From Nitrospirota bacterium (lineage in GTDB: Bacteria; Nitrospirota; Thermodesulfovibrionia; Thermodesulfovibrionales; Dissulfurispiraceae), in contig CAVPZX010000002.1 of NCBI GenBank assembly GCA_963710375.1, positions 800,001 through 864,000 of the forward strand: 64,000 nt of DNA, read 5' to 3'. The translations under genes and the position numbers were made by a program. Below are positions 8,496 to 51,652 of this stretch, one piece after another. Position 1 is the stretch's first letter, and every line of letters begins with the position of its first letter. Under the pieces are notes generated by a model that saw nothing but the letters and a program-made list of their open reading frames with translations, made no database searches and had not been told where the DNA came from.

Positions 8496-10904
8496 TCTTC
8501 GGCTACCCTTCCAATACTTACGATCCGGTCTTCAGCCTCCAGGTCCATAAGTTTAACTCCCTGAGTATTTCTTCCAAGCACCGAAATATTTCCCGCAACA
8601 GTCCTTATTAATTTTCCGGCGTTAGTGATAAGGACCACCTCATCCTCATTTTTTACCTGGAGGAGACCGACCGCATTGCCGCCTCTCTCCACTACCTTAA
8701 TTGAAATAACTCCTTTCCCGCCGCGGCCATGAACAGGATATTCCCCTATTTCGGTCCTCTTGCCAAGGCCTTTTTCCGTTACCGTTAAAAGGGTCATTCT
8801 TTCCTCGACAACATTGGCGGAAACAACTTCGTCGTCCTTACCCAGCCGGATGCCTATAACACCTCTGGCAGTCCGCCCGACTGACCTGACATCATCTTCC
8901 TCAAATCTGGCGGCAAGCCCGCGCTTAGTGCCGATAATAATGTCATTATTCCCAGAGGTCTTTTTAACGGCAATCAGACTCGTCGCCTTCGTCCAATGTC
9001 ACAGCTATTATACCTTTTGCCCTTGGGTTGCTGTATTCGCTGAGCTTTGTCTTTTTCACAATGCCGGCTTTGGTGAACATAACCAGATACCCATCGCTAA
9101 AATCTTTGACATTCAGAGCGGTCGTAATCCGTTCTCCATCTGAAAGAGAGAGGACGTTTACAAGCGCCTTACCCTTTGCCGCCCTACCAGCCTCTGGTAT
9201 CTGGTATATCTTAAGCCAATAGAGCCTGCCATTGTTGCTGAAAAACAGCATGTAGTCGTGAGTAGACCCTATAAAGAGCTGTTCAACAAAATCCTCTTCC
9301 CTGGTCTCCATCCCTGTCAGCCCCTTGCCTCCCCGGCGCTGGCTTCTGTATATCGACAGAGGATTCCGTTTGATGTACCCATTATGGGACACTGTTATAA
9401 CCATCTCCTCTTCTGTGATGAGGTCTTCTATGGTCAGATCAGCCGTCTCAGGGACAATATCTGTTCTTCTCTCGTCAGCGTATTTGTTTTTGACCTCGAC
9501 AAGCTCGTCTTTAACGATTTTCCATACGAGGGCTTCACTCCCGAGGATTGCCTTCAACCTCTCAATCTCTTTCAGCGTGTCTTCGTAATCCTTTATGATC
9601 TTATCACGCTCCAGCCCGGTCAGGCGCTGCAGGCGCATTTCCAGTATCGCCTGGGCCTGGATCTGGGACAGCGGGTATTTAGTCATTAGTCCTGTTCTGG
9701 CATCATCAGGGGTCTTTGACCGTCTGATAAGAGTGATGATTTCATCGAGGTGGTCCAGCGCTATCTTGAGACCTTCGAGGATATGTGCTTTTTCTTCAGC
9801 CTTCCTCAATTCGAAGCGCGTCCTGAAGAGTATTACATTCCTGCGGTGCTGAAGAAAATTGTCCAGCATATCCTTAAGCGTCAGGACAAGGGGCTTCCCT
9901 GCCACAATCGCAAGCATAATGACGCCGAACGTGGATTCCATTGCCGTGTGCTTGTAGAGATTATTGAGGATTACCTGAGCCATCTCTCCGCGCTTTATTT
10001 CCATAACTATCCTTATCCCGTCCCTGTCGGACTCGTCCCTGATATCAGAGATGCCCTCAATGCGCTTCTCGCGGACCAGCTCAGCGATCTTTTCAATAAG
10101 ACGCGCCTTGTTGACCTGGTATGGAAGTTCGCTGACAATTATGCTTTCGTTGCCGCGGGCTTCGCGTTCTACCAATACCTTTGCGCGAACTTTGATCAAA
10201 CCCCTGCCCGTGGTATAGGCACTGACAATGCCCCGGGTCCCGTGAATAATCGCGCCGGTAGGAAAATCAGGACCTTTTACGGCTGCCATCAACTCATTCA
10301 CCGTGACCTGGGGGTTCTCAAGCAGCATAATCAAGCCGTCCACAACCTCCCCGAGATTATGGGGCGGTATATTGGTAGCCATACCGACGGCGATACCAGC
10401 AGAGCCGTTGACAAGGAGATTGGGGACCCTTGTCGGAAGCACTACAGGCTCTTCAGTCGTTTCATCGAAATTAGGGGTAAAAGCAACTGTTTCCTTATCT
10501 ATATCGGCAAGGAGTTCTTCTGAAATCTTTGCCAGCCGCGCTTCGGTATACCGGTATGCAGCAGCAGGGTCGCCGTCAATAGAGCCGAAATTGCCCTGTC
10601 CGTCCACAAGTACGTACCTCATATTAAAATCCTGTGCCAGACGCACCAGAGCGTCATAGACCGCAGAGTCGCCATGGGGGTGGTATTTTTTCAAAACTTC
10701 GCCTACAACACCCGCGCATTTTGAGTATTTCTTATTGGGGAGAAGCCCTTCCCTGAACATGGCATAGAGTATTCTCCTCTGTACCGGCTTCAGGCCGTCC
10801 CGTACTTCAGGCAACGCCCTGCCGATGATTACGCTCATGGCGTAATCAAGATAGCTGACTTTCATCTCTTCTTCTATGCTGATCGACACCTTAGGCTGCA
10901 ACAT
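8492..10904 (-). CDS. gyrA: DNA gyrase subunit A, split by one extra base at about 8978 (probable sequencing error)
   Basis: [17 protein letters not shown], GyrA-box QRRGGKG; removing one base joins [19 protein letters not shown]...GRTARGV...GRGGKGV...GRNTQGV beta-pinwheel repeats. Confidence 0.95.
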
Positions 10905-11004
10905 TCATTTCCTCTCTTTTCTATAAAATATTGGTTATTATAACATATTGCTTCATTGCACCTTAAAAAAATCTGCCCGATATCTAAGGTATAATACAAC
11001 GACA

Positions 11005-11736
11005 ATGGCAATAGTGAAGGCAAGAGGACTCACAAAATTTTACGGTGACCTAAAGGCGGTTGATTCCGTTGACTTTCAGATCGAGAAGGGCGAATGCTTC
11101 GGGTTCCTGGGGCCGAACGGGGCAGGCAAAACAACAGTGATGAAGATCATTTACTGCTTCATGCCGCCGACTTCAGGCGATGTAACTGTATTCGGCATGC
11201 CTGTAACGGAAAAACCGAGCGCAATAAAGGCATGCATAGGTGTTATGCCACAGGAAGTCAATCTAGACCCCGACCTCACCGTGATCGAGAACCTTATCGT
11301 TTATGCACGGTATTTCGATATACCAAAAAAAAGGTCTCTCCCCATAGCCTGGGAACTGCTGGATTTTGCAGAGTTGCGGGAAAAGGCTGGCGCGAAAATA
11401 GAAAACCTGTCTGGAGGAATGAAGCACCGCCTGCTTCTTGCCCGCTCATTAGTCAACGATCCAGACCTGATGATTCTCGATGAGCCAACAACCGGGCTTG
11501 ATCCCCACAGCAGGCATGCGGTATGGGAAAAGCTGGAGAACCTGAAAGCAAAAGGGACGACACTGCTCCTGACCACTCACTACATGGAAGAAGCTGAAAA
11601 GCTCTGTGACCGGGTAGCGATCATGGATTCCGGAAAGATCGTGACTATCGATTCCCCTGAACATTTGATTGAGGCGCACGGCGGAAACCTCGAAGACGTA
11701 TATCTGAAACTCACCGGGAGGCAACTTGAAAGTTAA
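11005..11736 (+). CDS. ABC-2 exporter ATP-binding subunit (NodI-like)
   Basis: GPNGAGKTT, LSGGM, ILDEPTTGLDP, LTTHYMEEAE; ATG at 11005 preferred. Confidence 0.88.
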   Translation: MAIVKARGLTKFYGDLKAVDSVDFQIEKGECFGFLGPNGAGKTTVMKIIYCFMPPTSGDVTVFGMPVTEKPSAIKACIGVMPQEVNLDPDLTVIENLIVYARYFDIPKKRSLPIAWELLDFAELREKAGAKIENLSGGMKHRLLLARSLVNDPDLMILDEPTTGLDPHSRHAVWEKLENLKAKGTTLLLTTHYMEEAEKLCDRVAIMDSGKIVTIDSPEHLIEAHGGNLEDVYLKLTGRQLES

Positions 11737-12481
11737 GCGTGCATTCAGGGTTTGGCAGAGACACCTTTCTGTATATACTAAATTGTATAAATCGAGCTTC
11801 GCTCTCAATTTTGTCGAGCCGGTCCTGTACCTTGCAGCGCTGGGACTCGGGCTCGGAGCTTACATAAAAGAAATCAACGGGTCGCCGTATGTCAACTTCA
11901 TAGCACCAGGAATCATCGCTTCGTCATCAATGTTCGCATCCGTTTACGAGTGCACCTATGGCACCTTTGTGAGGATGACGTTTCAGAAAACCTTTGATGC
12001 GATACTCGCCACACCTGTCACAATTGATGACCTTATTGCCGGAGAATTGATGTGGGGCGCGACAAAAAGCGTCGTATACGGTACCATAATCATAGTAGTA
12101 ATATCGCTTTTCGGTCTTGTGGCCTCTCCCCTTGTGCTTGGTGTAATTCCTGTCCTCTTTATCAGCGGCCTTTTGTTTTCGGAAATATCATTGATCTTTG
12201 TAGCAAAAGTTCCGGGGATTGATTCCTTCAATTATTTTTACACTCTTTTTATGACTCCGATGTTTCTCTTTTCAGGCATTTTCTTTCCCATAGATACCCT
12301 CCCGCCACTAGTCGCCAAAATAGCATTCTTCACGCCGCTGTATCACCTTGTCAACATATGCCGGGCCTTTGCCCTCGGGAAGTTCTCAGCCGCTGCAGCA
12401 GATCTTGTTTGGCTCTTGGCTGTTTTTGCACTGCTTGCCGTTTATCCCTTCAGATTAATGCGCAGGCGTATAATAAAATAA
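11726..12481 (+). CDS. ABC-2 exporter permease (NodJ-like)
   Basis: 6 TM; EPVLYLAALGLGLG, FLFSGIFFP; overlaps the ATPase stop. Confidence 0.88.
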   Translation: MKVKRAFRVWQRHLSVYTKLYKSSFALNFVEPVLYLAALGLGLGAYIKEINGSPYVNFIAPGIIASSSMFASVYECTYGTFVRMTFQKTFDAILATPVTIDDLIAGELMWGATKSVVYGTIIIVVISLFGLVASPLVLGVIPVLFISGLLFSEISLIFVAKVPGIDSFNYFYTLFMTPMFLFSGIFFPIDTLPPLVAKIAFFTPLYHLVNICRAFALGKFSAAAADLVWLLAVFALLAVYPFRLMRRRIIK

Positions 12482-12483
12482 AT

Positions 12484-12975
12484 TTAACGCTCCTCCTTCC
12501 GGAGAACCCACATCCTGACATATACCTTATCGCCTTCCCTCCAATAAAATATGTTGAGAAGATCGGCGGCGCCATATACAAATGGCTGGTACAATGGCCG
12601 CACCTCATAACCGATTACCCTGCCGCTGCTGCTGTCAATGATCCTTGCTAACTGTGGCCTCGTAACATTCGGGTTCCGGCTGATGAAGTTGTATGCCCCG
12701 GCAAGCGCATCTTTTGCAGGCAAATCCTTTATAACCTTGTAATCGAAGTCCGGGGCATAGGGTACTATTGTATATGGGCTGTCTTCTTTGGCAAGAATGG
12801 CCACTGTTTCGAGAGCTTTCGCGTAAATGCCGCCATATAATATGAGAGAATAGGTTCCGGTAATTTCTTTTTCTGAGGCATCTTCTGTCCGGATCTCCTG
12901 TCTGAGCACGGCTCCGCATGCGGTGACCACAAGGGTGAAGAATAATCCCAGAACTGCAAGCATTAAATGTTTCAT
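12484..12975 (-). CDS. Hypothetical lipoprotein, tandem paralogue 1
   Basis: Lipobox VTAC after a hydrophobic stretch; strong SD before MKHLML; closely similar to the neighbour. Confidence 0.7.
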   Translation of the reverse strand: MKHLMLAVLGLFFTLVVTACGAVLRQEIRTEDASEKEITGTYSLILYGGIYAKALETVAILAKEDSPYTIVPYAPDFDYKVIKDLPAKDALAGAYNFISRNPNVTRPQLARIIDSSSGRVIGYEVRPLYQPFVYGAADLLNIFYWREGDKVYVRMWVLRKEER

Positions 12976-13067
12976 TAGTATCCCCTCCTCCTTTAACTTT
13001 TTCAGATTCCTCCCATATATCAAGCACCTTTTACACTATTCTTCGTAGAACTCATAAAATAAGGTCT

Positions 13068-13595
13068 TTATCGTTCATATTTCCGGAGCAAACTCATCCT
13101 GACAAATACCTTGTCGCCCTTCCTCCAATAATGGATGTCAACAATATCAGGGGCTGCTAATGTAAAGGTCAGGTAAAGAGGCCGGATCTCATACCCGATT
13201 ACCCTGCCGGTGCCGTCAACAATCCTGGCTGTCTGTGCCCTCGTAAAATCCGGATTCCGGCTGATGAAGCTGTATGCCACGGCAAGCGCCTCTTTTGCAG
13301 GCAGACGTTTTATAATCCTGTAATCGTATTCCGGGGTATAGGGTTCGATTGTATAGGGGCTATCTTCATCGGCGAGAATGGCCACAGTTTCCAGGGCCCT
13401 CGCGTAAATGCCGCCGTACAGTATGAGAGAATAGGTTCCCGTAATTTCTTTTTCAGAGGCATCTTCTGTCCGGATCTCATGCTTGAGCGAGAATCCGCAG
13501 GCGGTGACCACAAAGGAAAAGAATAATAACAGAACTGCCGACGACAAGTGTTTCAACTGTATCCTCATTCTAAAAACATACAACCCTTCTTTCAT
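13068..13595 (-). CDS. Hypothetical lipoprotein, tandem paralogue 2
   Basis: Lipobox VTAC; shares EIRTEDASEKEITGTYSLILYGGIYA and VIGYE.RPLY with the neighbour. Confidence 0.7.
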   Translation of the reverse strand: MKEGLYVFRMRIQLKHLSSAVLLLFFSFVVTACGFSLKHEIRTEDASEKEITGTYSLILYGGIYARALETVAILADEDSPYTIEPYTPEYDYRIIKRLPAKEALAVAYSFISRNPDFTRAQTARIVDGTGRVIGYEIRPLYLTFTLAAPDIVDIHYWRKGDKVFVRMSLLRKYER

Positions 13596-13621
13596 ATATC
13601 AATAACCTCTGACCCGCTGCC

Positions 13622-14236
13622 CTATTTTTCGTAAGACTCGAAGACCTTGCCAACCATCTTGGCCGATGGCTTCAGCGTCTTGTCACCTTCATCCTGCCAC
13701 TTAGCAGGGCATGCTTCGTCCCCAAACTTCGAGAGGTGGCTGTTAGCCTTGACCTTCCTTAAAAGCTCGACCATATTTCTTCCCATATTGTAGAAGTTGA
13801 CCTCGGCATTCAAAAGAATACCCTCGGGACTGATGATAAAGGTACCCCTCAGATCAAGTCCGGTCTCGTTGTTGTAGACGCCGAACATTTTAGATACAAC
13901 TCCACTGCGGTCGGCGCCCATTGGATATTTGGCATCTTTCAGCATTGTCTCCTCGCGCTGCCAGGCGAGATGGACAAATTTTGTGTCAGTGCTCACAGTT
14001 ATGACCTCGGCCCCAAGCTCCTTAAACTGATCGTACAACTCCGCAAGTGCGGCGAATTCGGTGGCGCATACAAAGGTAAAGTCAGCAGGATAAAACACAA
14101 GAACAGTCCATTGCTTGTTAGCCTTTAACATTTCGAGGCTGACTTCACCAAAATCGCCCTTTGTCGGTTCGTAGGTTTCGAGTTTGAAATCCGGTACCGT
14201 CTGCCCCACCCTTAATCCGCAACATATTTCACTCAT
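13622..14236 (-). CDS. ahpC: 2-Cys peroxiredoxin (AhpC family)
   Basis: FYPADFTFVCATE peroxidatic motif, RGTFII, resolving EACPAKW. Confidence 0.88.
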   Translation of the reverse strand: MSEICCGLRVGQTVPDFKLETYEPTKGDFGEVSLEMLKANKQWTVLVFYPADFTFVCATEFAALAELYDQFKELGAEVITVSTDTKFVHLAWQREETMLKDAKYPMGADRSGVVSKMFGVYNNETGLDLRGTFIISPEGILLNAEVNFYNMGRNMVELLRKVKANSHLSKFGDEACPAKWQDEGDKTLKPSAKMVGKVFESYEK

Positions 14237-14481
14237 AAGAACCTCCTGTAAAAAAATTATGCTCTTTATAGTAAAGCATATTATTTTTTTGCCCGTTCTG
14301 CAACTAAGTACTTCAGTTCATAAATACGGTGTCGCACCGAGAGGGTCGATGCGCCGTGCCGGCGAGGCGCACGACTGGTTGCGTACTGCGCGGGGATTGG
14401 TTTTGTCACCTGTTTTTTGTGTATAATTAAAGTTGGTGAAAAAGGCCTCAGTTTTGGAAATTAAATAGTTAGCAAGAGCCG

Positions 14482-16302
14482 GTGGAAATCAAAAACAAAT
14501 TCGACCCAACTACATCAACCGAAAGACTGCTTGACCTAATACGCGGCAAGAGTGATGGGACCGAAATTCATCAGGCCCAACAGCCCGTGAGACCCATAGT
14601 TATAAAGACAAGCAAATTAGTACGGCCGAAGTCAAAAACAAATTCTCAGTCGGTGACTGTGGGCATTGACATCGGATATGAAAATTTAAATCTGGTTAAG
14701 GCAGCTGGGTCTGCGCAAACATGGAAGATTTTAGAGTGCAAGAGCATCCCCATCCCTTCGGATATTGAAAAAGGATCAGACGCATTCAATGCTTTTTTGA
14801 AGTCAGCAGTGGTCCCTTTTTGCAGCGGTGCGAATAGGATCGAAACATGGGCCATCATGTCTTCTGCAGAGGTTGAGGTACGACTCATTCGCATTCCAAA
14901 GGTCCCTGCAAAAAATATCGAAGCAACCGTTTTCTGGACTCTTAAAAAAGAGGTGGCCATTAACGATACAGAATCTTTCCTGGACTATGAGGTGCGGGGA
15001 CAAATAAACGAATCCGGCATTGAAAAACTTAATGTCATGTGTTATGTGGCTCCCCTTGCAGCCATAGAAGAAACAAGGAAACTCTTCTCAAAAATCGGAG
15101 TGCAGCTGGCCGGCGTATCAATCATTTCGTTTGCAGTTCAGAATATCTTTTTGAATAACGTTATGCCCCTGCCTGAAAAACAGACCGCATGTCTGTTTAT
15201 CGGCAACAACTATTCCCGCATCGATCTGTACACCGACAGGAAACTGACAATGACGCGCGATATCATGACAGGTATTACCAGTATAGTTGAGACGCTGATA
15301 GAGGACATAAACAGCCTGACAAGCGAAGGCGGGAAGCATTCCCATGAGGAAGCCAGACAGATCCTTTTCGCCTTTACGCAGAGCAGCACCACTCCTCTTG
15401 TTCTCGCTGACGGCCTCTCTGTGGAAAGGGAAAAGGTTGACAGCATTGTCTCTCCTGTTCAGGAAAGGATAGTGCGTCAAATAGAGAGGACCTTCGAGCA
15501 TTTCACTTCGACCCTCGGATATGACAGGGTTGAAAAAATATATATTTCGAGTGTAATGCCTGTATCCAAAGCTATGGTCGATTATTGCGGCGCTCAACTT
15601 GGCATCGAGTGCGAAGTGTTTGACCCGCTTGAGCAGGTGCTGCAGACAAGCAGCTTTGAGAAACGGAATTCATTTATTCCTGCATTAGGCATTGCCCTGT
15701 CGGACAATGCTTATACTCCCAATTTCCTCCATTCCTTCAAGGACAAAAAAAAGGCCGAATATGTCGTGAAGTTTAACAAGGCTATTCTGATATGTTTAAT
15801 CGTTTCGCTGCTTGCATGTTCGGCCATTTTTGCATACGAATGGCTAGATATCGGCAACAAAAAGGCGGAATTGGCCCGGCTTGAGCAACAACTGCAAAAG
15901 AACTCTCCGCTCGTGAGTAAAGAAACATTCCTCCAGATAGCAGCTGCTGCAAAGCACAAACAGCAAAACTATGTCGAACTTAGCCATAGATACGTGGGAA
16001 TGGCCCTTATCGGAGAACTATCGTCCCTTACTCCGGAGTCCGTGAGCCTCACCAGTTTAAGGGCCGACTTTGCGGAAAAGCCAAAGGGAAACACATTAAA
16101 ATCTGAACACACCTCAGTAGTAGAGGGGATTATCAATGGCAATGAGAATATGCTCCAGACTCTGCTCGCCTCTTACGTGATGAAACTAAGATCCTCGCCG
16201 ATGTTTTCCGAAGTGAATGTTTCATCGAGCAAGATAGAAACATCAAAGCAGGGGTCTTCTCTCACTTTTGTGCTCAATCTTAAATTGGGGCCTAACAAAT
16301 GA
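14482..16302 (+). CDS. Type IV pilus alignment protein, PilM-PilN fusion
   Basis: Actin-like VGIDIG N-terminus, QIERTFEHF, single TM after NFL, then coiled-coil/PilN-like domain. Confidence 0.7.
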   Translation: MEIKNKFDPTTSTERLLDLIRGKSDGTEIHQAQQPVRPIVIKTSKLVRPKSKTNSQSVTVGIDIGYENLNLVKAAGSAQTWKILECKSIPIPSDIEKGSDAFNAFLKSAVVPFCSGANRIETWAIMSSAEVEVRLIRIPKVPAKNIEATVFWTLKKEVAINDTESFLDYEVRGQINESGIEKLNVMCYVAPLAAIEETRKLFSKIGVQLAGVSIISFAVQNIFLNNVMPLPEKQTACLFIGNNYSRIDLYTDRKLTMTRDIMTGITSIVETLIEDINSLTSEGGKHSHEEARQILFAFTQSSTTPLVLADGLSVEREKVDSIVSPVQERIVRQIERTFEHFTSTLGYDRVEKIYISSVMPVSKAMVDYCGAQLGIECEVFDPLEQVLQTSSFEKRNSFIPALGIALSDNAYTPNFLHSFKDKKKAEYVVKFNKAILICLIVSLLACSAIFAYEWLDIGNKKAELARLEQQLQKNSPLVSKETFLQIAAAAKHKQQNYVELSHRYVGMALIGELSSLTPESVSLTSLRADFAEKPKGNTLKSEHTSVVEGIINGNENMLQTLLASYVMKLRSSPMFSEVNVSSSKIETSKQGSSLTFVLNLKLGPNK

Positions 16303-16841
16303 AAAAAATCAGCGATATTATCTCTGTTCCAAGGGAGTGCGTGTCGAACCTGCTCTCAAGCCTCGCGACTGTTATCGTGTTCCTCTGCGTGGCTATTATT
16401 CCCGCCTACCTGTCCAGAGTAGCCGTTGAGCAAAAGATAACCAATGCAAAATATCGGCTTGATCAACATCAAACCCTGCTGCCGCTTTATGAGTCTCTTA
16501 AAAAAGCGCCCAGGGCTGACTTCCCGGCCCTTGCCGCACCAGTAAAAACCGCGCTTAAGAAGGCTGATGTCGGCAACGCCTTGTCAGCGGTGCGGGATAT
16601 TGCAGGCAAGTCCTCCATGACAGTTAATTACATTAACCCTGATCTAAGCGAAGCCTCCTCTCATACTCAGTCTCTTGCTGTGGATGTATCGCTCAAGGGG
16701 AGTTTTGAAAACTTTAGAACCATGCTGGCGGATATAGGCGCGCTGCCGTATGTGGAAAGTCTCGAAAACCTTTCAATACAGCGGGAGCCGAATGGACAGG
16801 CACTTGATATCAAAATGAAAATAATAGTGGCATTGAGTTGA
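16299..16841 (+). CDS. PilO-like pilus assembly protein
   Basis: N-terminal TM; V.LKGSFENFR..L..I..LP ferredoxin-like motif; operon position. Confidence 0.65.
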   Translation: MKKISDIISVPRECVSNLLSSLATVIVFLCVAIIPAYLSRVAVEQKITNAKYRLDQHQTLLPLYESLKKAPRADFPALAAPVKTALKKADVGNALSAVRDIAGKSSMTVNYINPDLSEASSHTQSLAVDVSLKGSFENFRTMLADIGALPYVESLENLSIQREPNGQALDIKMKIIVALS

Positions 16842-17347
16842 AAACATTTATTGATGCCAAGAAAAGACAGGGCATTATTTTAGGTGTCATGGTACTCGTC
16901 ATTATATATGGCTTTTACAGTCTGATAATGGCTTCGAGGGTAAAGCTGGCAGCGCCCAATTCGAATATGAGGGCAGCGGAACTCCAGTCATTTGTCACGC
17001 AGACCACTGCAACTATCGGCAGCGAGATGCCCTCTGCTTATGATATCTACGTTGCAAGCCGGGCCGGGAGCCCATGGGAAAGCAATCCTTTTTATCGGAA
17101 AGGCTGGGCTGAAAACAGCGGGCATAGCCGGTCAAAGGACAACACCTCCCTGCAATCTCTTTTCGTATATTCCGGCTATATAGAAACAGGCACTCGTAAG
17201 GTGGCCGTAATCAACGATACCGAATACATGGCCGGCGATCCCCTGGTGGATAAGAAGGGATTTTTTGTGAAAAAAATTTCACCTTCCAGTGTACTGATAG
17301 AGAACAGAAAAGAGAAAACAGAGTTCACGGTTCCATTATCTGAATAA
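16838..17347 (+). CDS. PilP/MshK/GspB-like pilus assembly protein
   Basis: TM, W..NPF motif, YSGYIE...AVIND...Y..GD. Confidence 0.6.
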   Translation: MKTFIDAKKRQGIILGVMVLVIIYGFYSLIMASRVKLAAPNSNMRAAELQSFVTQTTATIGSEMPSAYDIYVASRAGSPWESNPFYRKGWAENSGHSRSKDNTSLQSLFVYSGYIETGTRKVAVINDTEYMAGDPLVDKKGFFVKKISPSSVLIENRKEKTEFTVPLSE

Positions 17348-17481
17348 GAAGAAAGAGAATACTCAGAGTAAAAACAAACTGGCCCACTACCGCTAAGTTA
17401 CCTCCCTATCGCTCGATCTGGGATTAGAGTAGATAAGCTATAAAACCCTGCTGACAAAAAATAAAGATTATAATTTGTGGC

Positions 17482-17590
17482 ATTTTTCCATAGATATTGG
17501 AATTAATTCATATGCACATTGGATGATATTCCTCAAAACCTCAATAAATCAAAAAGATAATACGTTGTGCCACCTGGCACAGCCTTTGCT
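17482..17590 (+). promoter_or_regulatory. sigma54 promoter module upstream of pilQ (activator palindrome, IHF-like site, -24/-12)
   Basis: TTCCA-N7-TGGAA at 17486-17502; AATCAAAAAGATA; TGGCACAGCCTTTGCT at 17575-17590; homologous to 22462-22571. Confidence 0.82.
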
Positions 17591-17685
17591 ACACAATTGA
17601 CCCAAAGGGGATAAGAAATGCAACTACGGATATATGCGCCTCTAAGCAAGAAAAAGGGGAATAAAATGATAATAGGCGGCGGGTC

Positions 17686-19476
17686 ATGAGTCATGGGTCA
17701 TGGATTGTCGATAAAAATAAATCTATAGCCCTTAGCCTGTTGCCTATTGCCTATAGCGCTTCCTCTGCCGTCTCACGTAGAAGAGCATGCCTAAAGGCAG
17801 CTACTTCCGGTACTTTTGGGGCTGTGGTTAAAATTTGTGTTTTGATCCTTTTCCTGGCGCTGGCTGGTGGATGTGCAGGCAGTAAGCAGGAAGCTAAAGC
17901 TCCTTTTCAGGATAAGGAGGTAAACTGGGAAAAACTTGCGGAAATATCAAAAGGTCATTCACCTTCTCCGATTAAGAAAACCATTGATATTCATGATTAC
18001 CAGCAACAAATTGAGAAGGAAAGTTCTGGGGTCAAGGAAAAACCGCTGCCTTCCAAAAAGGTAAGCCTGAAAATGCGGAATGCTGATCTCAAATCCATAT
18101 TACGCGCTTTGGCCCGGGCAACGGACATTAATCTTTTTGTGAAGGATGACATCAAAGTGATGACGAGTGTTGATTTTGAGGCAGTGCCGTGGGACGAGGT
18201 GTTCAACAGCCTGCTGAAAGCTTATAGCCTGACCTATGTTTGGGAGGGTGATATCCTCCGCGTCTTATCTAATGATGATCTGGAGCAGCAGCTTAAGGCG
18301 GAAACAACCAGGGGAAAGCTCGAAACCCAGGAATTGCAGGACATGGCTTTGAGGCCGCTCTCCACCGTAGTAGTCCCGATAGACTACGCTGATACGAAAT
18401 CTCTAAGGGACGACCTGCAGGAGTTTCTGACAAAAGATAAGGACACAAAGGTAGCTCGCGGTACTGTCCGGGTGGACCAGCACAGCAACTCACTTATCAT
18501 ACAGGCATCGCACGAGGACATAGAGAAAATGCTGCCTGTAATAGAGAAAATAGACAAGCCGACGCCTCAAATACTTATCCGTGCCAATATTGTAGAGACT
18601 ACAAAGGATGTGGCGAGAAACCTCGGCATCCAGTGGGGCGGCATCATGAAGGCCGGCAATCTTTGGTTGACGCCTGGAGGAGGAACATCCTCTACTACCG
18701 GCACTTCAAGTACATCAAGCTCTTCCACCGGCCCTGCAAATCCTGTTACCACAGGCACCTCTGCTGTCACCAGCGGAGGCTATTCTCCCACCTCAGGGTC
18801 AACCGGGCTGAGCGGGCAGGGCATGGGCGTAAGTTTCCCTGTTTCATCAACTGCCATCAACGCTGCAGGCGGTGTTGGAGCACTCGGACTTATGTGGGGG
18901 ACTATAGGCGGCACCATTCTTGAGACCCAGCTGCAGGCCCTTCAAACTGAAGGAAAAGCCAACATAATATCGAGCCCATCCCTGACAACAGTTGACAACG
19001 AGAAGGCATTTACCGAAAGCGGCACGACAGTGCCCTATGTAACATATACGTTATCAGGCGGAAGTTCTACCCCGACCGTAAACTTTGTTGATGCTGTTCT
19101 CAGGCTTGAGATAACCCCGCACGTTATTGGCGGCAAGAATCTTAAAATGATTATTGTTGTGAAAAAGAATGATGTAGACACCTCACAAACAGTACAGGGG
19201 AACCCTTTCATAATCAAAAAACAGACCGAAACAACGCTGATTGTGGAGAATGGCGAGACTATTGTCATAGCAGGACTGACCAGTCTAAATCATACCCATA
19301 ATACGAATGGAGTGCCATTGCTTCAGGACGTTCCAGTGCTGGGAAATCTTTTCAAGGGAGACTCAAAGGAAGATTCCTCGGACCAAGTTCTCATATTCAT
19401 TACCCCTTACATTTTACCGAGATCCGGCGACTTGGCCGAAGCGAGTAATGATGGTCATGCAACGCCGAAGGAATAA
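17686..19476 (+). CDS. pilQ: Type IV pilus secretin (lipoprotein type); true start uncertain
   Basis: LAGGC lipobox, STN/N domains, PQILIRANIVE, LGIQWG, VPLLQDVPVLGNLFK, LIFITPYI. Confidence 0.88.
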   Translation: MSHGSWIVDKNKSIALSLLPIAYSASSAVSRRRACLKAATSGTFGAVVKICVLILFLALAGGCAGSKQEAKAPFQDKEVNWEKLAEISKGHSPSPIKKTIDIHDYQQQIEKESSGVKEKPLPSKKVSLKMRNADLKSILRALARATDINLFVKDDIKVMTSVDFEAVPWDEVFNSLLKAYSLTYVWEGDILRVLSNDDLEQQLKAETTRGKLETQELQDMALRPLSTVVVPIDYADTKSLRDDLQEFLTKDKDTKVARGTVRVDQHSNSLIIQASHEDIEKMLPVIEKIDKPTPQILIRANIVETTKDVARNLGIQWGGIMKAGNLWLTPGGGTSSTTGTSSTSSSSTGPANPVTTGTSAVTSGGYSPTSGSTGLSGQGMGVSFPVSSTAINAAGGVGALGLMWGTIGGTILETQLQALQTEGKANIISSPSLTTVDNEKAFTESGTTVPYVTYTLSGGSSTPTVNFVDAVLRLEITPHVIGGKNLKMIIVVKKNDVDTSQTVQGNPFIIKKQTETTLIVENGETIVIAGLTSLNHTHNTNGVPLLQDVPVLGNLFKGDSKEDSSDQVLIFITPYILPRSGDLAEASNDGHATPKE

Positions 19477-20689
19477 GTGATCATGGACTATTTCAGGATT
19501 CTGAATCTTAAAAGGGAACCTTTTTCCAATACCCCTGACCCCGAACTGTTTTATCCGTCACGCAATCACGTGGAATGTTTGCAGAGGATCGAAATGGCCA
19601 TTCGTCTCAAGCGGGGGTTGAACGTAGTAATCGCAGAGGTCGGAACAGGAAAAACGACTTTGTGCAGGCAGACTCATCCAGCAGATTTCTACAGCAGAGG
19701 GAAATGAATTGATAGATCTGCACCTCATACTGGATCCATCCTTCTCCAGTTCCAGTGAATTCCTTTCAGTTATAGCAGGGTGTTTTGGCCTGATCCCGCA
19801 CGGCGAAAACATCATTGACCGGAGCGATTGGCAACTGAAGGAATCGATCAAGAATTACCTTTTATCAAAGGGAGTGGAAGAGGGGAAAATAGTGGCACTT
19901 CTGATAGATGAGGGCCAAAAACTACCGGATTTTTGCCTTGAAATATTGCGCGAGTTTCTTAATTGTGAAACCAATGACAGCAAACTCCTCCAGATAGTGA
20001 TTTTCGCCCAAAATGAATTCAAGGAACAAATTAACGCGCAGGCCAATTTTGCAGATCGGATCAATTTGTGTTATTCCCTGACTCCGTTCGGTTTCAGGGA
20101 AACCTGCAGAATGATAAAGTACCGCATCAACGAAACGAGCGTGAATGGCGCAGGCCGGGTGCTGTTTACTTTGCCGGGACTGTTTGCCGTTTACAGGGTT
20201 ACGGCAGGCTACCCCCGCTCCATCAATATGCTTTGTCATCATGTAATGCTCGCGCTAATAATTCAGAACCGTGTCAAGGCTGGGTGGTCCCTGGTACGCT
20301 CCTGCGCCGGCAGGCTCGCCATCAAACGGCGGAGGCCGGTCAATCTGCGGTTGGCGTTCATGGTCACAATACTAATGGTGTCGTTCTCATTTCTCGCATT
20401 TGCCTATTATGAACCTTTATTGAAAACAGCCTCATCGATAACAGGACTTTTTCAGGCAGTGGCTGAGGACCAGCTCGCCGTCAACTCAAGGCCGCAACCA
20501 GATCCCTCTGAATCAGGCGAAAGAAAAAACGCACCGTCCGTTCCCTGGCAATGGTTCATGGAAAAAGGCCGGCCCCCGGCGATAAAATCAGTTTTCCAGA
20601 CAGTGCCGGAGCAACCGCTCGCCGTCAACTCAAGGCCGCAACCAGATCCCTCTGAATCAGGAGATAAGAATGCGGAGGACAGACTGTGA
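19477..20689 (+). CDS. ExeA/MshM-like AAA ATPase with TM, split by one extra A at 19672
   Basis: PFSNTPDP, AEVGTGKTT Walker A; after correction continues RQLIQQ... into LLIDEGQ Walker B and GYPRSINMLC. Confidence 0.82.
20473..20661 (+). repeat. 45-bp exact direct repeat, 144-bp period, in the ExeA C-terminal tail
   Basis: GCTCGCCGTCAACTCAAGGCCGCAACCAGATCCCTCTGAATCAGG at 20473-20517 and 20617-20661 (LAVNSRPQPDPSESG twice). Confidence 0.9.
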
Positions 20690-22389: not shown

Positions 22390-22461
22390 GACGCGTTATA
22401 GTGTTGTATCAAAAAGTGCTATACTGCCTTTTTTTGTTCGGTCATTAATTGCAAATATGTA

Positions 22462-22571
22462 ATTTTTCCATAGACATTGGAATTAATCCATTTCCACGCT
22501 GTATCACGTTCCTCGGAAATCCCAATAAACCAAAAAGATAATATATTGTCTTGCCTGGCATAATCCTTGCT
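22462..22571 (+). promoter_or_regulatory. sigma54 promoter module upstream of pilC (second copy)
   Basis: TTCCA-N7-TGGAA at 22466-22482; TGGCATAATCCTTGCT at 22556-22571. Confidence 0.82.
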
Positions 22572-24442: not shown

Positions 24443-26894
24443 TTATTTCAGCTTAAGACGCGCACAGGCGTCAGGGTCCTTGAGGGCGCAGCCCCTTCGC
24501 AAATCAGTCAGAGCCTCTTGAGTTCTCACCTGTCCTGAGATAAAGTTTCCCCCGGTCTGTGTAGGCAACGGCGAGATTGGGGTCCAGTGAGAGCGCTTTA
24601 TTGAAGTCTGCAAACGCATGATCAAATTCTTTTAATTCCGAATAAGCGAGCCCCCTGCTGACATAAGTGGGGGCATATGCAGGGTTGAGTTCGATCGCCT
24701 TTGTATAGTCCCCAATCGAACGGAAGTAATCTTTTTTGGAATAAAAAGAGAGACCCCGGCCGTCATACAATGCAGGACTTTTATCGTATAATGCAATAGC
24801 CCTGGTATATTCCCGAATAGCGAAATCATACTGCCCCAAATAATTATAAGCAACAGCAGACTTGTAATGAGCTACTATGTCTTTTTGATCAATTCTGACT
24901 GCTGAGGCGAAATCGGCAATAGCATTTGCGTATTCTTTACGTGCCATAAACATTTCCCCCCTGTTACGGTAGGCGTCTGAATCGTATGGAAAGTCGCGTA
25001 ATATTTTGCCGAACAACTGCATTGCTTCATTATATTTCCCATTACGGCCATAACACACAGCGAGGGCATAAAGCGGTCCTTCAGAATGTGGATTCATTGC
25101 AAGGGCCTTGAAAAGGTTATCCATAGCAAGCGATGGTTCTCCTTTTTCAAGATACGCTATGCCCATTCCTGTATAGGTCTTTGAATTTTTTTGTAGGGCA
25201 TCTGCTTTGGCAAAGTTTTCGAGGGCAATTTCATATTCCTTTTTCAGCAGGAATGCCTCTCCCTTGTTATGCCAGGCTAATACAGATTTTGGGGAGAGAA
25301 TGAGAGCCCTGTCAAGCGCCTCAAGGGCCTTATCAGGCTGATTTACGGCAATATAGGCATTGCCCATATTGTTCCAGGCCTGGCTGCTATTGGGGCTCTT
25401 CTCAGTGACATCTTTCCAAAAGGCAACCTTGTTTGACCAGACATCGTTCCTTGCATAGGTCATCCCGAACAATACGGCGATTACCACAAAGCAGAGCTGA
25501 AGCAGCATTCTCCTTTCCCTGTCGAATCTTATACGCTCTGCGACCACGAACAGGGCTGTACAGAGCGCTATGAAAAAACCGGCCGAAGGCAGATACAGCC
25601 TGTATTCATCGATGAGAGTAGGCAAGGGTATAATGCTCGATTCAACCGAGAGCGTCATAAAATACCAGAGTATACCGAACCCGATAAGGCGAAACTCAGG
25701 ACTGAGGCCAGAGGACTGAGGACTGAGACGCGAGGACTGAGAGATGAGGACTGAGGACTTAGCAGAAAGGTTTTGGTCTTCGCGCTTTGCTCTCAGTCCT
25801 TCGCCCTCAGTCCTTGTTCTTTTCGCAGTCTTCTTCACCAAGTATACCCCAAGGACAAAGAGCGCTGATAAACATATGAACGACAGCATCACCTGCGGAT
25901 TGAAGAATGATTTATAGAGGGGATAATCATAAATAAGGGTCTGGTTTACAGGCACAAACATCAATCTGAGATAAGTAATAATTACCCTGAATTGGGTAAA
26001 GAAATAGGGCCAGCGCGGCATCTCCGGGTATCCTACGTCGGCCACCGCCACCGTGGCCATTATCTGATGAAGATGTTTGCCCGACCCCATCATTGTCCGG
26101 ATGATTGTCAGAGGCACGATGCATGAAGTCAGCAACAGAGGAGCGAGATAAAGTAGCCGCTGAAAAAAACTGACGCGGGGATGCGGAGACGCGGAGACAC
26201 GGGGATAAGGACTGAAAAAGCAAAACTCATATAAAGTGATCACAAAAGGCAGGGTAAAGGCGTTCTCCTTTGTCTTCATGGCTGCGATCGAGGATAAAAT
26301 CGAGAGGGCGTAAAATATATACCGGCTTTTTTTACCGGCGGATAAGCGCCAACATGCATAGGAAACAATCGACAGGAGGTAAAACAGTGCGGCCAACGAT
26401 GCCAGCCGCTGAAAAACATAAGTCACAGCTTCAGTTTGGATGGGATGTATTGCAAAAAGCAGAGAGATTGAAAATGCGATAGCTTTCGACTTCTCGCTTA
26501 ACCGGGAGTCCCGTAAAAATGGAGACCTGAATGTAAGCAAAACAAGGAAGTATATAAGCGCGGCATTAATTAAATGTATACAGACATTTACAATATGGTA
26601 ACCCAACACAGCGAAGCCGTGGAGTTTATAGTTGACTGCAAACGTAAGATAGCCTAAATACCTTATTATGAAGCCGTCATAAAACGTAAGTCCCGCTGCT
26701 TTTGAAGGCTCCAGAAAATAGGTCAGATTTTTGATAATCGGATTTTCACGAAGAAAAATGTCTTCATCCCACTGAAAAGGGGCATTAAAGGTATTGGAGT
26801 ATGCCAAAAAACCGATAACAGCAATCAGCAGAATATGGAAAACCGGGTTACCAGGAATATTCTTTTTTATGGTTTGTGCGATTTTTCTCAGCAT
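24443..26894 (-). CDS. GT-C membrane glycosyltransferase (TMTC/DUF1736-like) with C-terminal TPR repeats; probable frameshift near 24523
   Basis: YSNTFNAPFQWDE acidic loop, HPIQTEAVTY, KENAFTLP, EYRLYLPS, RNDVW, about 9 TPRs; natural-looking end QEALTDLRRGCALKDPDAC lies in the adjacent frame. Confidence 0.8.
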
Positions 26895-28511: not shown

Positions 28512-29792
28512 CCATGGATAGTAAACATCAGAATCGGGGAAAAAGCAAAATCGGGAGCCGGAGAGGGTCCATTCTAATAGGATTGGTCATTACCCTGCTT
28601 ATTATGGTGATTGCCGGCGTTGCAACCGTTTATTTGACCACAGGCTCAACATACACTGAGATCCTGAAAAACAATAATGTGAAAGCTTACTATCTTGCAG
28701 AGTCAGGCGGTCGGGTTGCCTACCCTCTCATATACTCGGATTTGCTTAATGGGAATCAGACAAACATGCAGGCCCTGTTTGGGACCAATTTATCGAACAC
28801 TCCTACCTATACCCTTTCAACCGGAACGTTCACCCTTTCCATTAGCAACGTTACCTCTACATCAGCGCTTCTAACTTCTGTTGGCACAGTCAATTCAGGT
28901 AGTTGGCTTCAAACCAAGAGAAATGTCGTATATTCAGTTGGTGCTGTGCCAGTGTCTGGCAGCGGTCCAAGTAACAGCCCCAGCAGCAGTTTTTACAATC
29001 AGACTAATTTCAACAACGATTGGATTACCGGACCTGGCACGACGGCATCGCCGGGCACAAGCACCGGACCTTCCGCAGGAACTGCATTGATGTTTAAAGG
29101 GGGCAGTGGTTTCATTGCCATGAATTGGACGGCCGGAAGTGTTGTTCCTTCGTCTTACGATATCCAGCTGAAAATTAACGTAAATGCTCAAGGAAGTCAC
29201 GGAAAGTTTTACCTGTTAGGTCTGTCATTCCGCCTGAGCCTAGACAGACTCAAATAATCCTCAAAATTGTTATGGTATTTCATTTTTTAGAAACGATGGG
29301 TCCGCCCCGTCCTCCTGGCCTTCTTCTTTGGTTACCGCACTGAGTAGCATCCCTGGTTCTGCTAATGAATACATAGTGTTATGGAAGGAGATCAACGGGA
29401 CATATTCTTTAATCGATTACAGACAGTTAACCCAAAGTGACGGCGTTTTGAATTCTGATGGAACATTGGCAACTTGGTCTACTATCATCATTACACTAAA
29501 TCAGACAATTGCTGGTGGTTCGAATAGTATATCATCTTATATTGCTGGACCTGCGACATATCCATACGGAACGGTCAATTGGCAATTTTCTAGTTTTACG
29601 CCAGTATCCTGGCATGCTAACGGGACTAACCCAATTGTGGATAGTTCTCTCACAACAGCGCAAGCTCCTGAAATAGGGATTCACAGCTTCTATGATAGCA
29701 ATGCTGCAAATGACCAGTTTTTTGCTGATTTCACAGTGCTTCCGACAAGCAGTGGAAACGGAGGAACCGGAAGCTCACAGCAGTATTATTAG
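28508..29792 (+). CDS. PilX/MshP-like minor pilin with C-terminal beta-rich domain, split by one extra A at 29248
   Basis: G|SILI (no Glu5), AYYLAESG; removing one base joins ...SLD-SSNNPQNCYGISFFR... in frame to ORF 29328-29792. Confidence 0.75.
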
Positions 29793-36964: not shown

Positions 36965-39612
36965 ATGAGATTAGATAAATTAACGGTCAAAAGCCAGGAA
37001 GCTATGCAGGAAGCGCAGGGCATTGCTGAAAGAAACGGCAATCAGCAGCTCGATGTAGAACATCTGCTCTTAGCGCTCCTCGTTGATGAAGAAGGCATTG
37101 CGCTTCAAATACTCAGAAGGCTCGGAGCCGATATTGCTGAGATAAGGAAAGAGACTGAAAAAGAGATAGAGCGTTTTCCAAAGGTATCCGGAGCTGCCCC
37201 TATGGGCCAGCTATACATCGCACCACGCTTGAAAACCGTACTTGAGAAGGCGTATGAAGAGGCAACCCATCTGACAGATGAGTTTATCAGTGTCGAGCAC
37301 CTGCTGCTGGCCATCGCCAACACCTACGGTCCTGCATCTGAGATCCTCAAACGGAGCAGCGCTCCACCCGATGCAATCCTTACCGCTATGCGCGAGATCC
37401 GCGGTGTCCATCGGGTTACGGACCCAAATCCGGAAGAGAAATACCAGGCCCTTGCCAGGTACGGCAAGGACCTCACCGATCTTGCGCGAAAAGGGAAGCT
37501 CGATCCTGTTATCGGAAGAGACGAAGAAATACGCAGGATTATCCAGGTGCTCTCGAGAAGAACAAAAAACAATCCTGTGCTCATCGGAGATCCGGGCGTA
37601 GGGAAAACAGCAATCGCTGAAGGACTTGCCCAGAGAATTGTTGCCGGGGATGTGCCTGAAACACTGAAAGACAAGCGCCTGATAACCCTAGATATAGCAA
37701 GTCTCGTTGCAGGCTCAAAATTCCGCGGCGAATTTGAAGAGCGCCTCAAAGCTGTATTAAAAGAGATCGAGCAGTCGGAAGGCAAGGTCATAACCTTTAT
37801 CGACGAACTCCATACCCTGGTCGGCGCGGGCGCGGCCGAGGGGTCGGTTGATGCATCCAACATGCTCAAACCTGCTCTTTCCCGGGGTGAGTTGCGCTGT
37901 GTCGGGGCAACAACCGTAAATGAATACAGGAAGTATATAGAAAAAGATCCTGCATTAGAGCGGAGGTTCCAGCCTGTTTATGTTAAAGAGCCTTCTGTCG
38001 AAGATACTATTTCGATTCTCAGGGGACTAAAGGATAAATATGAGGTCCACCACGGAGTAAAGATAAAAGATTCCGCCCTTGTCGCAGCAGCGGTCCTTTC
38101 TCACAGATATATAACCGACAGGTTCCTTCCTGACAAGGCCATAGACCTGATCGATGAATCTGCCTCAAAGTTGAGAATGGAAATAGACAGCATGCCGACC
38201 GAACTTGACGAAATCGAAAGAAAATTGAGGCAGCTCGAGATCGAGAAACGGGCTGTAATGCGCGACGACGGCTCTCAGGACGCGAGGGAGAAGCTCGAAA
38301 AACTGTCAAGGGAAATGGCTGAACTTCAATCAAAACGGGACGTGCTCAGAGCGCAGTGGTTGAGCGAAAAAGAAGCAATTCAGAAGATCAGGGACCTTAA
38401 AGAGCAGCTCGAAACAACAAAAATCGAATCAGAGAGGGCCGAGCGTGAGGGAGACCTTGCCAAGGCTGCCGAGTTGAAGTACGGCAAGCTCCTGCAACTG
38501 CAGAAACTCCTTGAAGAGGACAACCTTAAGCTTCGCGAGACCCAGTCAAGGAGAAAGATGCTGAAGGAAGAGGTCGATGAAGAAGACATCGCTGAAGTAG
38601 TTTCGAAATGGTCCGGGGTGCCGGTGTCGAGAATGCTCGAAAGCGAAGTCCAGAAGTTGATCAAAATGGATGATAATCTCAGGAAAAGGGTCGTAGGCCA
38701 GGATGAGGCAATCGCCGCAGTATCCAATGCCATCAGAAGGGCGCGTGCCGGCATCCAGGACCCGAACAGGCCTATTGGATCATTCCTGTTCCTCGGCCCT
38801 ACAGGTGTAGGCAAAACCGAACTGGCAAAGGCGCTTGCCGAATTTCTCTTTGATGATGAAGCAGCGGTCATACGGATAGATATGTCCGAATATCAGGAGC
38901 GCCACACTACCTCACGGCTGATTGGAGCGCCTCCCGGCTATGTTGGCTACGAGGAAGGCGGGCAACTGACCGAAGCGGTGCGGAGAAGGCCGTATTCGGT
39001 GATATTATTTGACGAGGTTGAAAAGGCGCACCCTGAAGTATTCAACCTCCTCCTGCACTCCTCGATGACGGCAGGCTGACTGATGGGCATGGAAGAACAG
39101 TGGACTTCAGAAACGCCGTTGTCATTATGACATCCAACATAGGTAGTACACACATACAGGAGATACTCGAGGAGAGGGCCCGGAGGCCTGTGGCGCGCTG
39201 GTACGACGAAAACAGGCAGGACCTGCGGGACAAGATAATGAGCGACCTGAAATCCTTCTTCAGGCCTGAGTTCCTTAACAGGGTCGATGATATCATAATC
39301 TTCAACCCGCTCAATGAGGAGTTGCTGAAGAGCATTGTAGAAATTCAGGTTGCGAGGATGAAAAAGTATCTGCTGGAGAAGAAGTTAGATATAGTGCTCA
39401 CCGATGCGGCGAAAAAACATATCGCTCATGTGGGATACGACCCTGTTTTCGGCGCCCGTCCGCTCAAACGGGCCATACAGAATGAAATCCTCAACCCGCT
39501 CGCACTTAAAATACTTGACAGGACATTTAAAGAAGGCAGTGTGGTTGAAGTGGACTACGATGGGGGGAATATTGTATTTAGAAGCCTGGCAGTAGACAAA
39601 GTTAAATGTTAA
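36965..39612 (+). CDS. clpB: ATP-dependent chaperone ClpB, split by one missing base at about 39057
   Basis: Two AAA modules and M-domain; adding one base restores [22 protein letters not shown] and joins ORF 39100-39612. Confidence 0.95.
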
Positions 39613-45734: not shown

Positions 45735-46295
45735 TTATAAAGATGCCCCATCTCTGATAGCGGCAAGGATAACATCAACATCTTTAGCCCCCTCATCAGT
45801 CTTAAGCATCTCCAGCGGGCTCTTCCCCTGAAAGGAAAAGTGGGGAGCCAAAAGCCACTTGCGGGCATTCTCCGCACCGCCCAGAACCTCGACAGCAAGA
45901 GCGTATGTCTCCGTCAAGCGGTATGGTCTTATGGCAAAACATTCATCACACAGCGTCCTGAGCCATTCATGAAATTTACCCTCGTTGAGCGTCCTTCTCT
46001 GTCCGGGCTTTCCGCAATCCTCACATGTTACAGACGCTCTTTCGGCAGCGGTGGCGATTAGTTCAGCAATAGCGTTATTTTCGCCAGCCACATAAACCAT
46101 CAAGTCGCCAAACTTTTCCTTGACCTGCTCTACTTTGAATCTGGTAAGCGCGGAACTCTTTACAACTTCATCAATCTTTACAAATAAATCCTCAAGGATA
46201 GGCAGCCAGCCGTCACCGCACGAAAAGCCGATTGGCCTGAGAAAATCATACTTATTCTGTAGATTATGCCTGCGTTTTTCTTGTATTTCACCCAT
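45735..46295 (-). CDS. Phage-type Zn-finger protein (GW...QVKEKFG...CxxCG) fused to an Xre/MbcA/ParS C-terminal (DUF2384)-like domain
   Basis: CGDGW, QVKEKFGDL, CEDCGKPG, TLCDEC; C-terminal AVEVLGGAENARKWLLAP...GKSPLEML.TDEG...V..IL.AI..G. Confidence 0.65.
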   Translation of the reverse strand: MGEIQEKRRHNLQNKYDFLRPIGFSCGDGWLPILEDLFVKIDEVVKSSALTRFKVEQVKEKFGDLMVYVAGENNAIAELIATAAERASVTCEDCGKPGQRRTLNEGKFHEWLRTLCDECFAIRPYRLTETYALAVEVLGGAENARKWLLAPHFSFQGKSPLEMLKTDEGAKDVDVILAAIRDGASL

Positions 46296-46316
46296 TCCGT
46301 TCTCCTTTGGTTAATC

Positions 46317-47712
46317 TTATTTCTGGTTATCAATCCCTACTAACCTTGACCTCTTAATTACTTCCCTGCAGATTCTACTGCACGCGATCCGCTCATCTTC
46401 TTTATTACCAACTATCCCTATGCCTTTGATATCGAAAGCAACCAGTCTTTGTGTTGGCCTTATCCCCTGCTGCATCAGCATCACCGCACTCTGATGATAT
46501 AAGTCGCACTTATCCGCAAATCTCCGCATTTTCCCAGAGTGTCTATGTGCCTGGAAGCGCTGGTTCATTCTCTTGGCGATATCCCCGAACCTATTGAAAA
46601 GAGTACGACGGTTAACCCCGAGTTTCTCTGCTGCCGTGGCTACGCTGATCGGCGGGTTTTCATTAGACAGCATTTCCAGTTGACGCTTAATCAATTCTCT
46701 GTCGAGTTTCTGAGTCTTCCTTGTGCGGGTTGATATTTGGGCTACGGTATGCGTGGCAATGATCTCTGTCCCCTCAAATGTGGTGTTCGTACCCAACATG
46801 ACATCAGCTATGGAAGATCGACATGCGAACGACATTTCAACCATCTGTGGGAAACTCGGGATGAATTTACCATTCATCCATCCATGTAACGTATTTTTCT
46901 TAATCCCCAACAGTTTTCCCAAAAGTGCCGCATTACCTCCGGTAAAATGCTGCGCGGCACTTTTAAGGAACTCAGAAATTCCTACTATGCCCCTATGACT
47001 TTTAGGCTTTAGTCTTTCTATATCACCTAACATAACGACGATAAGCTGCGCTCTTTTTACTTCATCCTCTGAGGCGCTTTCTATCAATTCTTCATAATTT
47101 TCTGTCAAGGAGTATCCGCACGAGCCACAAAACCCCGACAGGTGTTTAACATGCCGTGTAGACAGAGGCGATGACCCGTTACACCTGCATTGGCTTACCA
47201 ACTTAATCCCGTGTTTTGGGCATGCTTCGATAGCAGCTATCTCCCATAAAAGCTGTCCGTAGGCTCGCCCTTCTTGAGCCGCCTCAGAAAGACATATGGG
47301 GCACCATTTCTTTGTACTACTCATAAGCCGCTGCACGTTCATATATGGCCTCAAAGGAACAAGCGTTAAATCAATGAGACCTTGCTGCCCTGTAAGTTCA
47401 CTCAGGATATTCGCCCACGTTTCAGGAACAGAAGCTGATACCATTAAATAGCGGGAGTTTCCAGATCGTGAAAGCATCGTCGCTTTGGCGTGCATTACCG
47501 TCTTTTATCCTTGGGATTATTAGCTCCCTTGCCAAAGTCTTCGGAGAAACATGGTGGAGATGGGCGAGCCCCAGGTAGTAGCTGCTAAGACTTTCCCTGT
47601 ATGGTGTACCTAAACCCATTGGCCTTAGCGATGCCAACAGCGACCTTGGAGGGATCCGGGCATCCGGATCAACTCCCACCAACGGATAATCGTCCACACA
47701 TTCCACGTTCAT
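46317..47712 (-). CDS. tniQ: TniQ/TnsD target selector with C-terminal HTH domains, split by one extra base at about 47432
   Basis: GTPYRESLSSY N-terminus, WCPICL, LLW...CPKH...C.C...CGSCG zinc motifs; corrected junction FNGISSVPETWANILSELTG; about 464 aa; ATG overlaps the tnsC stop. Confidence 0.88.
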
Positions 47713-51650: not shown

Positions 51651-51652
51651 AT

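Follow-up and report, generated by a model that had tools for sequence, protein, structure and literature searches.

Why should six genes within one short stretch of a bacterial genome be broken by single bases, all of them at the same kind of word, and are these breaks real? The question is raised by a window of 64,000 nucleotides from a Nitrospirota bacterium (contig CAVPZX010000002.1, positions 800,001 to 864,000; G000:C2:800001-864000 in our numbering), which lies within a 3.19-Mb genome of 9 contigs that is 98.8% complete (G000). A sequence-only reading of the window had named five genes broken at or around CAGCTC and suggested that modified bases had misled the assembly; all five motif strings are present and all five genes are truly split in the assembly, and a sixth frameshift, which it had placed at about 24523 and outside the motif, is actually at 24514, where GAG[C]CTC fits the word SAGCTS (S = C or G). 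We consider it highly probable that the frameshifts are one-base consensus errors on SAGCTS, likely arising from host methylation misread by a long-read base caller. The sites are listed below, together with two hidden substitutions, an extra base being given in brackets and a missing one as a dash.

8975..8981: break in gyrA, CAG[A]CTC for true CAGCTC; the A at 8978 is an assembly insertion (short reads, relatives)
13137..13142: hidden substitution, assembly GTCAAC for true GTCGAC (A>G at 13140 in 4/4 runs)
15889..15894: hidden substitution in pilM, assembly CAACTG for true CAGCTG (A>G at 15891 in 4/4 runs)
19669..19675, plus strand: break in an exeA/mshM-type ATPase gene, CAG[A]CTC for true CAGCTC (19672 omitted in 4/4 runs)
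24511..24517: sixth break, GAG[C]CTC for true GAGCTC (24514 omitted in 4/4 runs), near the 3′ end of a minus-strand gene for an 851-aa TPR protein
29245..29251, plus strand: break in a pilX-like gene, CAG[A]CTC, likely an error (homolog frame comparison)
39056..39060, plus strand: break in clpB, CA[-]CTC, one base missing, likely an error at CAGCTC (the relative G003 has the G)
47431..47437, minus strand: break in tniQ, GA[A]GCTG, likely an error at GAGCTG (homolog frame comparison)

The five sequencing runs that best match this genome are soil metagenomes, and contigs from four runs (two studies; run X1 may be the source sample) were compared with the assembly over positions 8000-27900, with runs X6-X13 (share 0.28 or less) left out. 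Only five differences over these 19.9 kb are common to all four runs, four at SAGCTS and one at GTCGAC: the bases at 8978 (gyrA), 19672 (exeA) and 24514 (TPR gene) are absent, and G replaces A at 13140 and 15891, while six other differences occur in one run each. Wrong sites in this stretch make up 4/21 of the true SAGCTS sites and 0/38 of the other AGCT sites (P = 0.013), and the sole true GTCGAC site is wrong, with 17/18 GTCAAC/GTTGAC words confirmed. Because the short-read DNA is free of the indels, which accurate reads do not confirm at any of the three checkable sites, the gyrA, exeA and TPR-gene indels are assembly errors and these genes are intact. In gyrA the A at 8978 is also absent from 9/9 relative loci, and its removal extends the open frame from 646 to 803 aa.

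For pilX, clpB and tniQ the indels are likely assembly errors too, as judged from intact homologs. Both clpB and gyrA are recovered as two pieces in the assembly, and opposite the window's CTGCA-CTCCTC the relative G003 reads CTGCAGCTCCTC, with the missing G. The pilX homolog in G001 is a single 556-aa frame whose match switches frame at 29236-29247; one deleted base lengthens the window's open frame from 257 to 435 aa, and a frame above 400 aa results at just 17 deletion positions (29241-29257), CAGACTC being the sole motif-type word among them. The pilX-like gene (28508-29792) has a DNA match in 1/20 relatives searched, suggesting that the pilus cluster is variable here among members of the genus. 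For tniQ, 4/4 homologs tested are single-frame, the two closest matches switch frame at 47437/47435, and a search of metagenome contigs gave no match. The earlier proposal that the genes are intact in vivo holds for gyrA and exeA on 4/4 short-read runs and is likely for the other three on homologs, and a pseudogene label is unwarranted for gyrA, the pilus genes, clpB and tniQ.

The footprint extends over the genome. We aligned 1.44 Mb of G000 with G003, a relative with 91% identity across gyrA of which 2.63 of about 4.2 Mb was fetched, and kept isolated one-base gaps, third-codon periodicity and the open frame deciding which genome is broken; this filter discards most gaps (41/2573 were kept in the first pass). 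After the final pass, 43 one-base frameshifts disrupt G000 and 4 disrupt G003. The former comprise 35 at SAGCTS, 4 at GTYRAC, 1 at another AGCT and 3 without a motif, one of the 35 (C3:200208) being equally compatible with GT[T]CAAC, and 0/4 of the G003 breaks fit SAGCTS. The fit holds for 31/38 extra-base events (chance 3.0%, P = 7e-41) and for 4/5 missing-base events (chance 9.7%, P = 4e-4). The errors cluster at the G|C junction of CAGCTG, CAGCTC/GAGCTG and GAGCTC and mostly consist of one added base of any kind; the 27 clean SAG[N]CTS cases divide into 11 CAGCTC/GAGCTG, 11 CAGCTG and 5 GAGCTC, so that sites other than CAGCTG hold 16/27. The aligned DNA contains 1188 SAGCTS sites and 3435 other AGCT sites, with a single frameshift at the latter, and A/T-flanked AGCT shows no concentration of errors. 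SAGCTS was picked after a subset of the events had been viewed, and a motif-blind ranking returned the same words, with AGCT as the top 4-mer and CAGCTG and CAGCTC as the top 6-mers.

The error footprint is SAGCTS. The strong enrichment of the AGCT core among frameshift contexts (35/43 at SAGCTS) bears out what the sequence-only reading had expected genome-wide, while both motifs that it offered were a little off, the footprint being wider than CAGCTC/GAGCTG and narrower than AGCT. A motif specific to CAGCTC was ruled out, as it covers just 11/27 clean cases. A test that uses no relative gives the same direction: when SAGnCTS loses its middle base, two long frames become one at 104/3657 sites (2.8%), the rate for 8 control words being 1.0-1.9% and that at random 1.4%. 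Other measures are weaker or flat. The G>T/C>A asymmetry at SAGCTS is slight (57 vs 28), non-synonymous fractions at SAGCTS are equal, and whole-genome k-mer counts by themselves failed to reveal the errors. Scaling 43 events per 1.44 Mb to the genome would give about 95 false frameshifts as a lower bound.

A second motif, GTCGAC, was missed by the earlier single-motif view, although its candidate enzyme lies in the window. GTCGAC occurs 149 times in G000 and 393, 588, 626 and 439 times in four congeners of 3.3-4.2 Mb, and its observed/expected ratio is 0.33 in G000 vs 0.87 in G003. At the GTCGAC words of G003, G000 has GTTGAC/GTCAAC 82 times, and the reverse case occurs 8 times. For in-frame GTC GAC, the change G4>A (Asp>Asn) is found at 20/170 sites vs 21/1129 controls (P = 2e-8), a count in which some antisense frames passed the filter, and a separate framing gives non-synonymous changes at 13/46 vs 13/215. 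The GTCGAC errors are thus mostly substitutions; a list of premature stops was discarded, as it consisted mostly of antisense frames. If the errors are strand-symmetric, about 34 sites would be misread vs 24 read correctly, or roughly half, and true site avoidance may add to the deficit. Restriction-site avoidance is therefore not the sole reading of GTCGAC scarcity, and the reference genome likely holds some 95 or more false frameshifts together with hidden GTCGAC substitutions that produce false Asp>Asn changes.

Which enzymes might write these marks? A search for a methyltransferase, as the sequence-only reading had proposed, returned a fitting candidate for SAGCTS, and the window itself carries a pair that fits GTCGAC beside transposition genes.

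G000:C2:522189-523358: M.PvuII-like methyltransferase, 389 aa (PF01555; M.PvuII match)
46317..51519, minus strand: tniA/tniB/tniQ transposition genes beside the XamI-type system (Pfam rve, TnsA-like N, TniB, TniQ)
52376..53359, plus strand: XamI-family restriction endonuclease, 327 aa (Pfam RE_XamI, E = 2e-119; PADLOC REase_II, E = 6e-109)
53360..54889, plus strand: type II amino-methyltransferase, 509 aa, with an NPPY motif (Pfam Eco57I; PADLOC MTase_II, E = 1e-126)

The M.PvuII-like protein matches M.PvuII (PDB 1BOO) over residues 13-300 with E = 2e-101; the homology is full-length, the gene is intact, and a TSPPF motif IV precedes a C-terminal S-adenosylmethionine-binding motif. It is a candidate writer of the SAGCTS mark, its specificity being predicted from homology. 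The gene lies just past smpB and the transfer-messenger RNA (tmRNA) gene, after a Rep-like gene (PF23343), and is followed by an MTaX1-HNH nuclease gene and then an HhH-GPD gene; the element after the tmRNA gene spans L031 (G000:C2:519000-527000). Among 30 relatives, G003 included, no ortholog was found (best 34%), which fits the lack of SAGCTS errors in G003, though the sequencing platform of G003 is not given. Many phyla have homologs at 60-88% identity, and 59/80 homolog loci also have an MTaX1-HNH homolog. It is possible, though we think it less likely than not, that methyltransferase and nuclease form a mobile restriction-modification system of type II with SAGCTS as its target, and that errors in public assemblies suffice, with no raw signal, to reveal this specificity and the methylome of an uncultured soil bacterium (SAGCTS, GTCGAC).

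XamI/SalI-type systems recognise GTCGAC and make N6-methyladenine. In the window the methyltransferase gene of this type is intact and directly follows the RE_XamI endonuclease gene, and RE_XamI is present in 1/30 relatives. The pair (52376-54889) likely gave rise to the GTCGAC errors and is a candidate for a defence system carried by a transposon, its activity being predicted from the genes.

A plausible course of events begins with host DNA in which gyrA, exeA and the TPR gene lack the indels, and with errors that gather at the G|C junction of SAGCTS and not at A/T-flanked AGCT. The M.PvuII-like enzyme, of the beta class and carried on the element by the tmRNA gene, would write N4-methylcytosine (m4C) at SAG(m4C)TS. 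Nanopore reads of native DNA, which the 9 long contigs and the error pattern indirectly suggest as the source of the assembly, would miscall m4C systematically, so that about 3% of sites, or more, would keep the error in the consensus. The XamI/SalI-type pair would methylate GTCGAC; misreading as GTCAAC/GTTGAC, the main form, would affect perhaps half the true sites, GT[T]CRAC being an occasional outcome.

The class of artefact and both motifs are already known; what is new is this instance, the corrected motif and the added second motif. In Oxford Nanopore assemblies about 70% of errors were placed in Dcm motifs (CCWGG) (Wick et al., 2019; PMC6591954, in part, as we mark sources available in excerpt), and de novo motif discovery has made use of C>T/G>A errors that fall on modified motifs (Liu et al., 2024; PMC11610603, in part). 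The errors described here are likewise systematic, survive the consensus and are absent from short reads, and those at 13140 and 15891 are of the same G>A/C>T type. Unlike the published Nanopore cases they concern different motifs and an uncultured organism, and whereas the available part of PMC11610603 stresses substitutions, the commonest SAGCTS error in G000 is a one-base insertion that leads to a frameshift. In this way assembly errors could suggest, at little cost and in a form open to test, which two motifs are methylated in an uncultured organism and by which enzymes.

As for the motif, m4C at SAGCTS has been assigned to M.Ble402III of Beggiatoa leptomitoformis (PMC4675945), and the SAGCTS m4C of M.Ble402III/M.Ble401III appears again in PMC5920184 (in part); SAGCTS has likewise been described in Burkholderia sp. 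FERM BP-3421 and in Robbsia (PMC10589681, in part), and related m4C motifs around CAGCT are found in PMC6329791 (in part). The degenerate hexamer is the same, and m4C is in keeping with the candidate's enzyme class, but the Beggiatoa mark was measured by single-molecule real-time (SMRT) kinetics and ours is deduced from errors, so the two are likened by motif and not by enzyme sequence. In the excerpts available, literature on SAGCTS held no treatment of sequencing errors; searches for XamI with GTCGAC found none, and one combining PvuII, AGCT and m4C found nothing relevant.

M.PvuII itself has the specificity CAG(m4C)TG. The candidate shares its TSPPF catalytic motif and domain order, and CAGCTG is among the G000 error sites; it differs in a C-terminal extension of about 90 aa, in a footprint that adds CAGCTC/GAGCTG and GAGCTC, and in its neighbour, an MTaX1-HNH nuclease instead of the PvuII endonuclease. 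Unlike what would be expected of AGCT methyltransferases (M.EsaBC1I, M.AluI), the errors depend on the flanks. The pair in the window resembles XamI/SalI-type systems in having an RE_XamI endonuclease followed by an NPPY methyltransferase, with GTCGAC both misread and depleted; it differs in adjoining tniABQ genes, in having a cytosine-5 (C5) enzyme as an alternative writer, and in being known here from genes alone.

Several other explanations have to be weighed. Long-read errors depend on k-mer context, so one might suppose that all AGCT is methylated, as AG(m4C)T or AG(m5C)T (5-methylcytosine), and that the base caller fails only with C/G flanks; AGCT does rank first among 4-mers, and enzymes for both marks are known (PMC3287169, Table 1, in part). 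This seems improbable given the 35 frameshifts found on about 1190 SAGCTS sites and the single one on 3435 other AGCT sites (6% of events expected there by chance), 0/38 short-read differences at other AGCT, no non-synonymous excess at mixed-flank AGCT, and a real published SAGCTS specificity (PMC4675945); a plain AGCT motif is unsupported. Context could also act by itself, as a weakness of base caller or polisher at SAGCTS involving no modification, and the modification is indeed deduced and not read directly, with G003, which lacks these errors, of unstated platform. We think this very unlikely, because two separate motifs are hit, each with a matching strain-specific methyltransferase family in the genome, and because published motif-linked consensus errors track methylation (PMC6591954 and PMC11610603, both in part).

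The writer might instead be another enzyme, or two together, such as the C5 methyltransferase beside Vsr (G000:C5:474780-476000), which could also write GTCGAC as an alternative to the XamI-type pair. The genome has several further methyltransferases, C5 enzymes are known for GAGCTC and AGCT (PMC3287169, in part) and, as M.HgiDII, for GTCGAC (table in PMC6329791, in part), and the sites avoided around PvuII-like genes suggest CAGCTG. Yet a single PvuII-like enzyme with relaxed outer bases would cover all three hexamers, enzymes limited to CAGCTG and GAGCTC cannot yield CAGCTC/GAGCTG, and the published SAGCTS mark is m4C (PMC4675945 and PMC5920184, in part), so we give this alternative only a small chance. 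PvuII and AluI cut at the G|C junction, exactly where the indels lie, and an HNH nuclease adjoins the M.PvuII-like gene; real scars or strain mutations, left by error-prone repair of a blunt AG|CT cut, could thus be imagined. They are refuted at the three tested indels, which are absent from 4/4 otherwise near-identical runs including the possible source sample, and since gyrA is essential and a genome 98.8% complete, whose divergence from its relative is ordinary, could not plausibly have about 95 broken genes, we regard real indels as extremely improbable.

Several observations weigh against methylation-driven errors at SAGCTS written by the M.PvuII-like enzyme. Methylation and platform are deduced from the errors and not from raw reads or signal, and pilX, clpB and tniQ lie beyond 27900, outside the short-read check, so that for them an error is likely on homologs. 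In the relative-free test neither the duplicated A of the tniQ type (1.5%) nor the missing base of the clpB type (1.3%) is in excess. Against G003, G>A/C>T transitions at SAGCTS are balanced (172 vs 173), so that errors of the 15891 type are invisible genome-wide. At 4/21, SAGCTS errors are more frequent in the window than the lower bound for the whole genome (35 of about 1220) would suggest, probably owing to how the window was selected. Around 80 homologs of the methyltransferase, CAGCTG is depleted (observed/expected 0.34) and CAGCTC is not (1.1); in these pooled, non-independent loci, site avoidance fits CAGCTG better than SAGCTS for the predicted specificity of the family as a whole. A footprint sought in homolog loci gave no support: the one-base frameshift at L190:3110-3130, which disrupts the counterpart of the methyltransferase gene in a different long-contig genome, is not at SAGCTS. 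At least 8 further DNA methyltransferase candidates exist besides the main one, and CTCGAG shows no assembly-error footprint despite an XhoI-type system, so that a methylome shows only in part in assembly errors.

Family searches of the genome returned about ten methyltransferase-like genes and no match to the Dam-like PF02086. The XhoI-family endonuclease and its adjacent beta-class methyltransferase are at L032 (G000:C3:40172-41825), and at L033 (G000:C5:473429-476000) the C5 methyltransferase is accompanied by the Vsr gene and unassigned open reading frames (ORFs) near an integrase.

The mobile neighbourhood of the XamI-type pair has features of its own. A LexA-like regulator is encoded at 51617-52276, beside the pair. 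The 919-aa transposase (48760-51519), upstream of tniB and tniQ, has a TnsA-like N-terminal match and a DDE/Mu-C region and is a possible TnsA-TnsB fusion. Directly downstream of tniQ is an Xre/ParS-type antitoxin gene (45735-46295), adjoined by a 156-aa ORF with no Pfam match. Cargo genes at 55157-58061 include Schlafen/AlbA_2, DUF5677 and MauJ-like genes, and a Tn3-family transposase (988 aa) with a serine resolvase lies at 59725-63262, close to the tniABQ cargo region.

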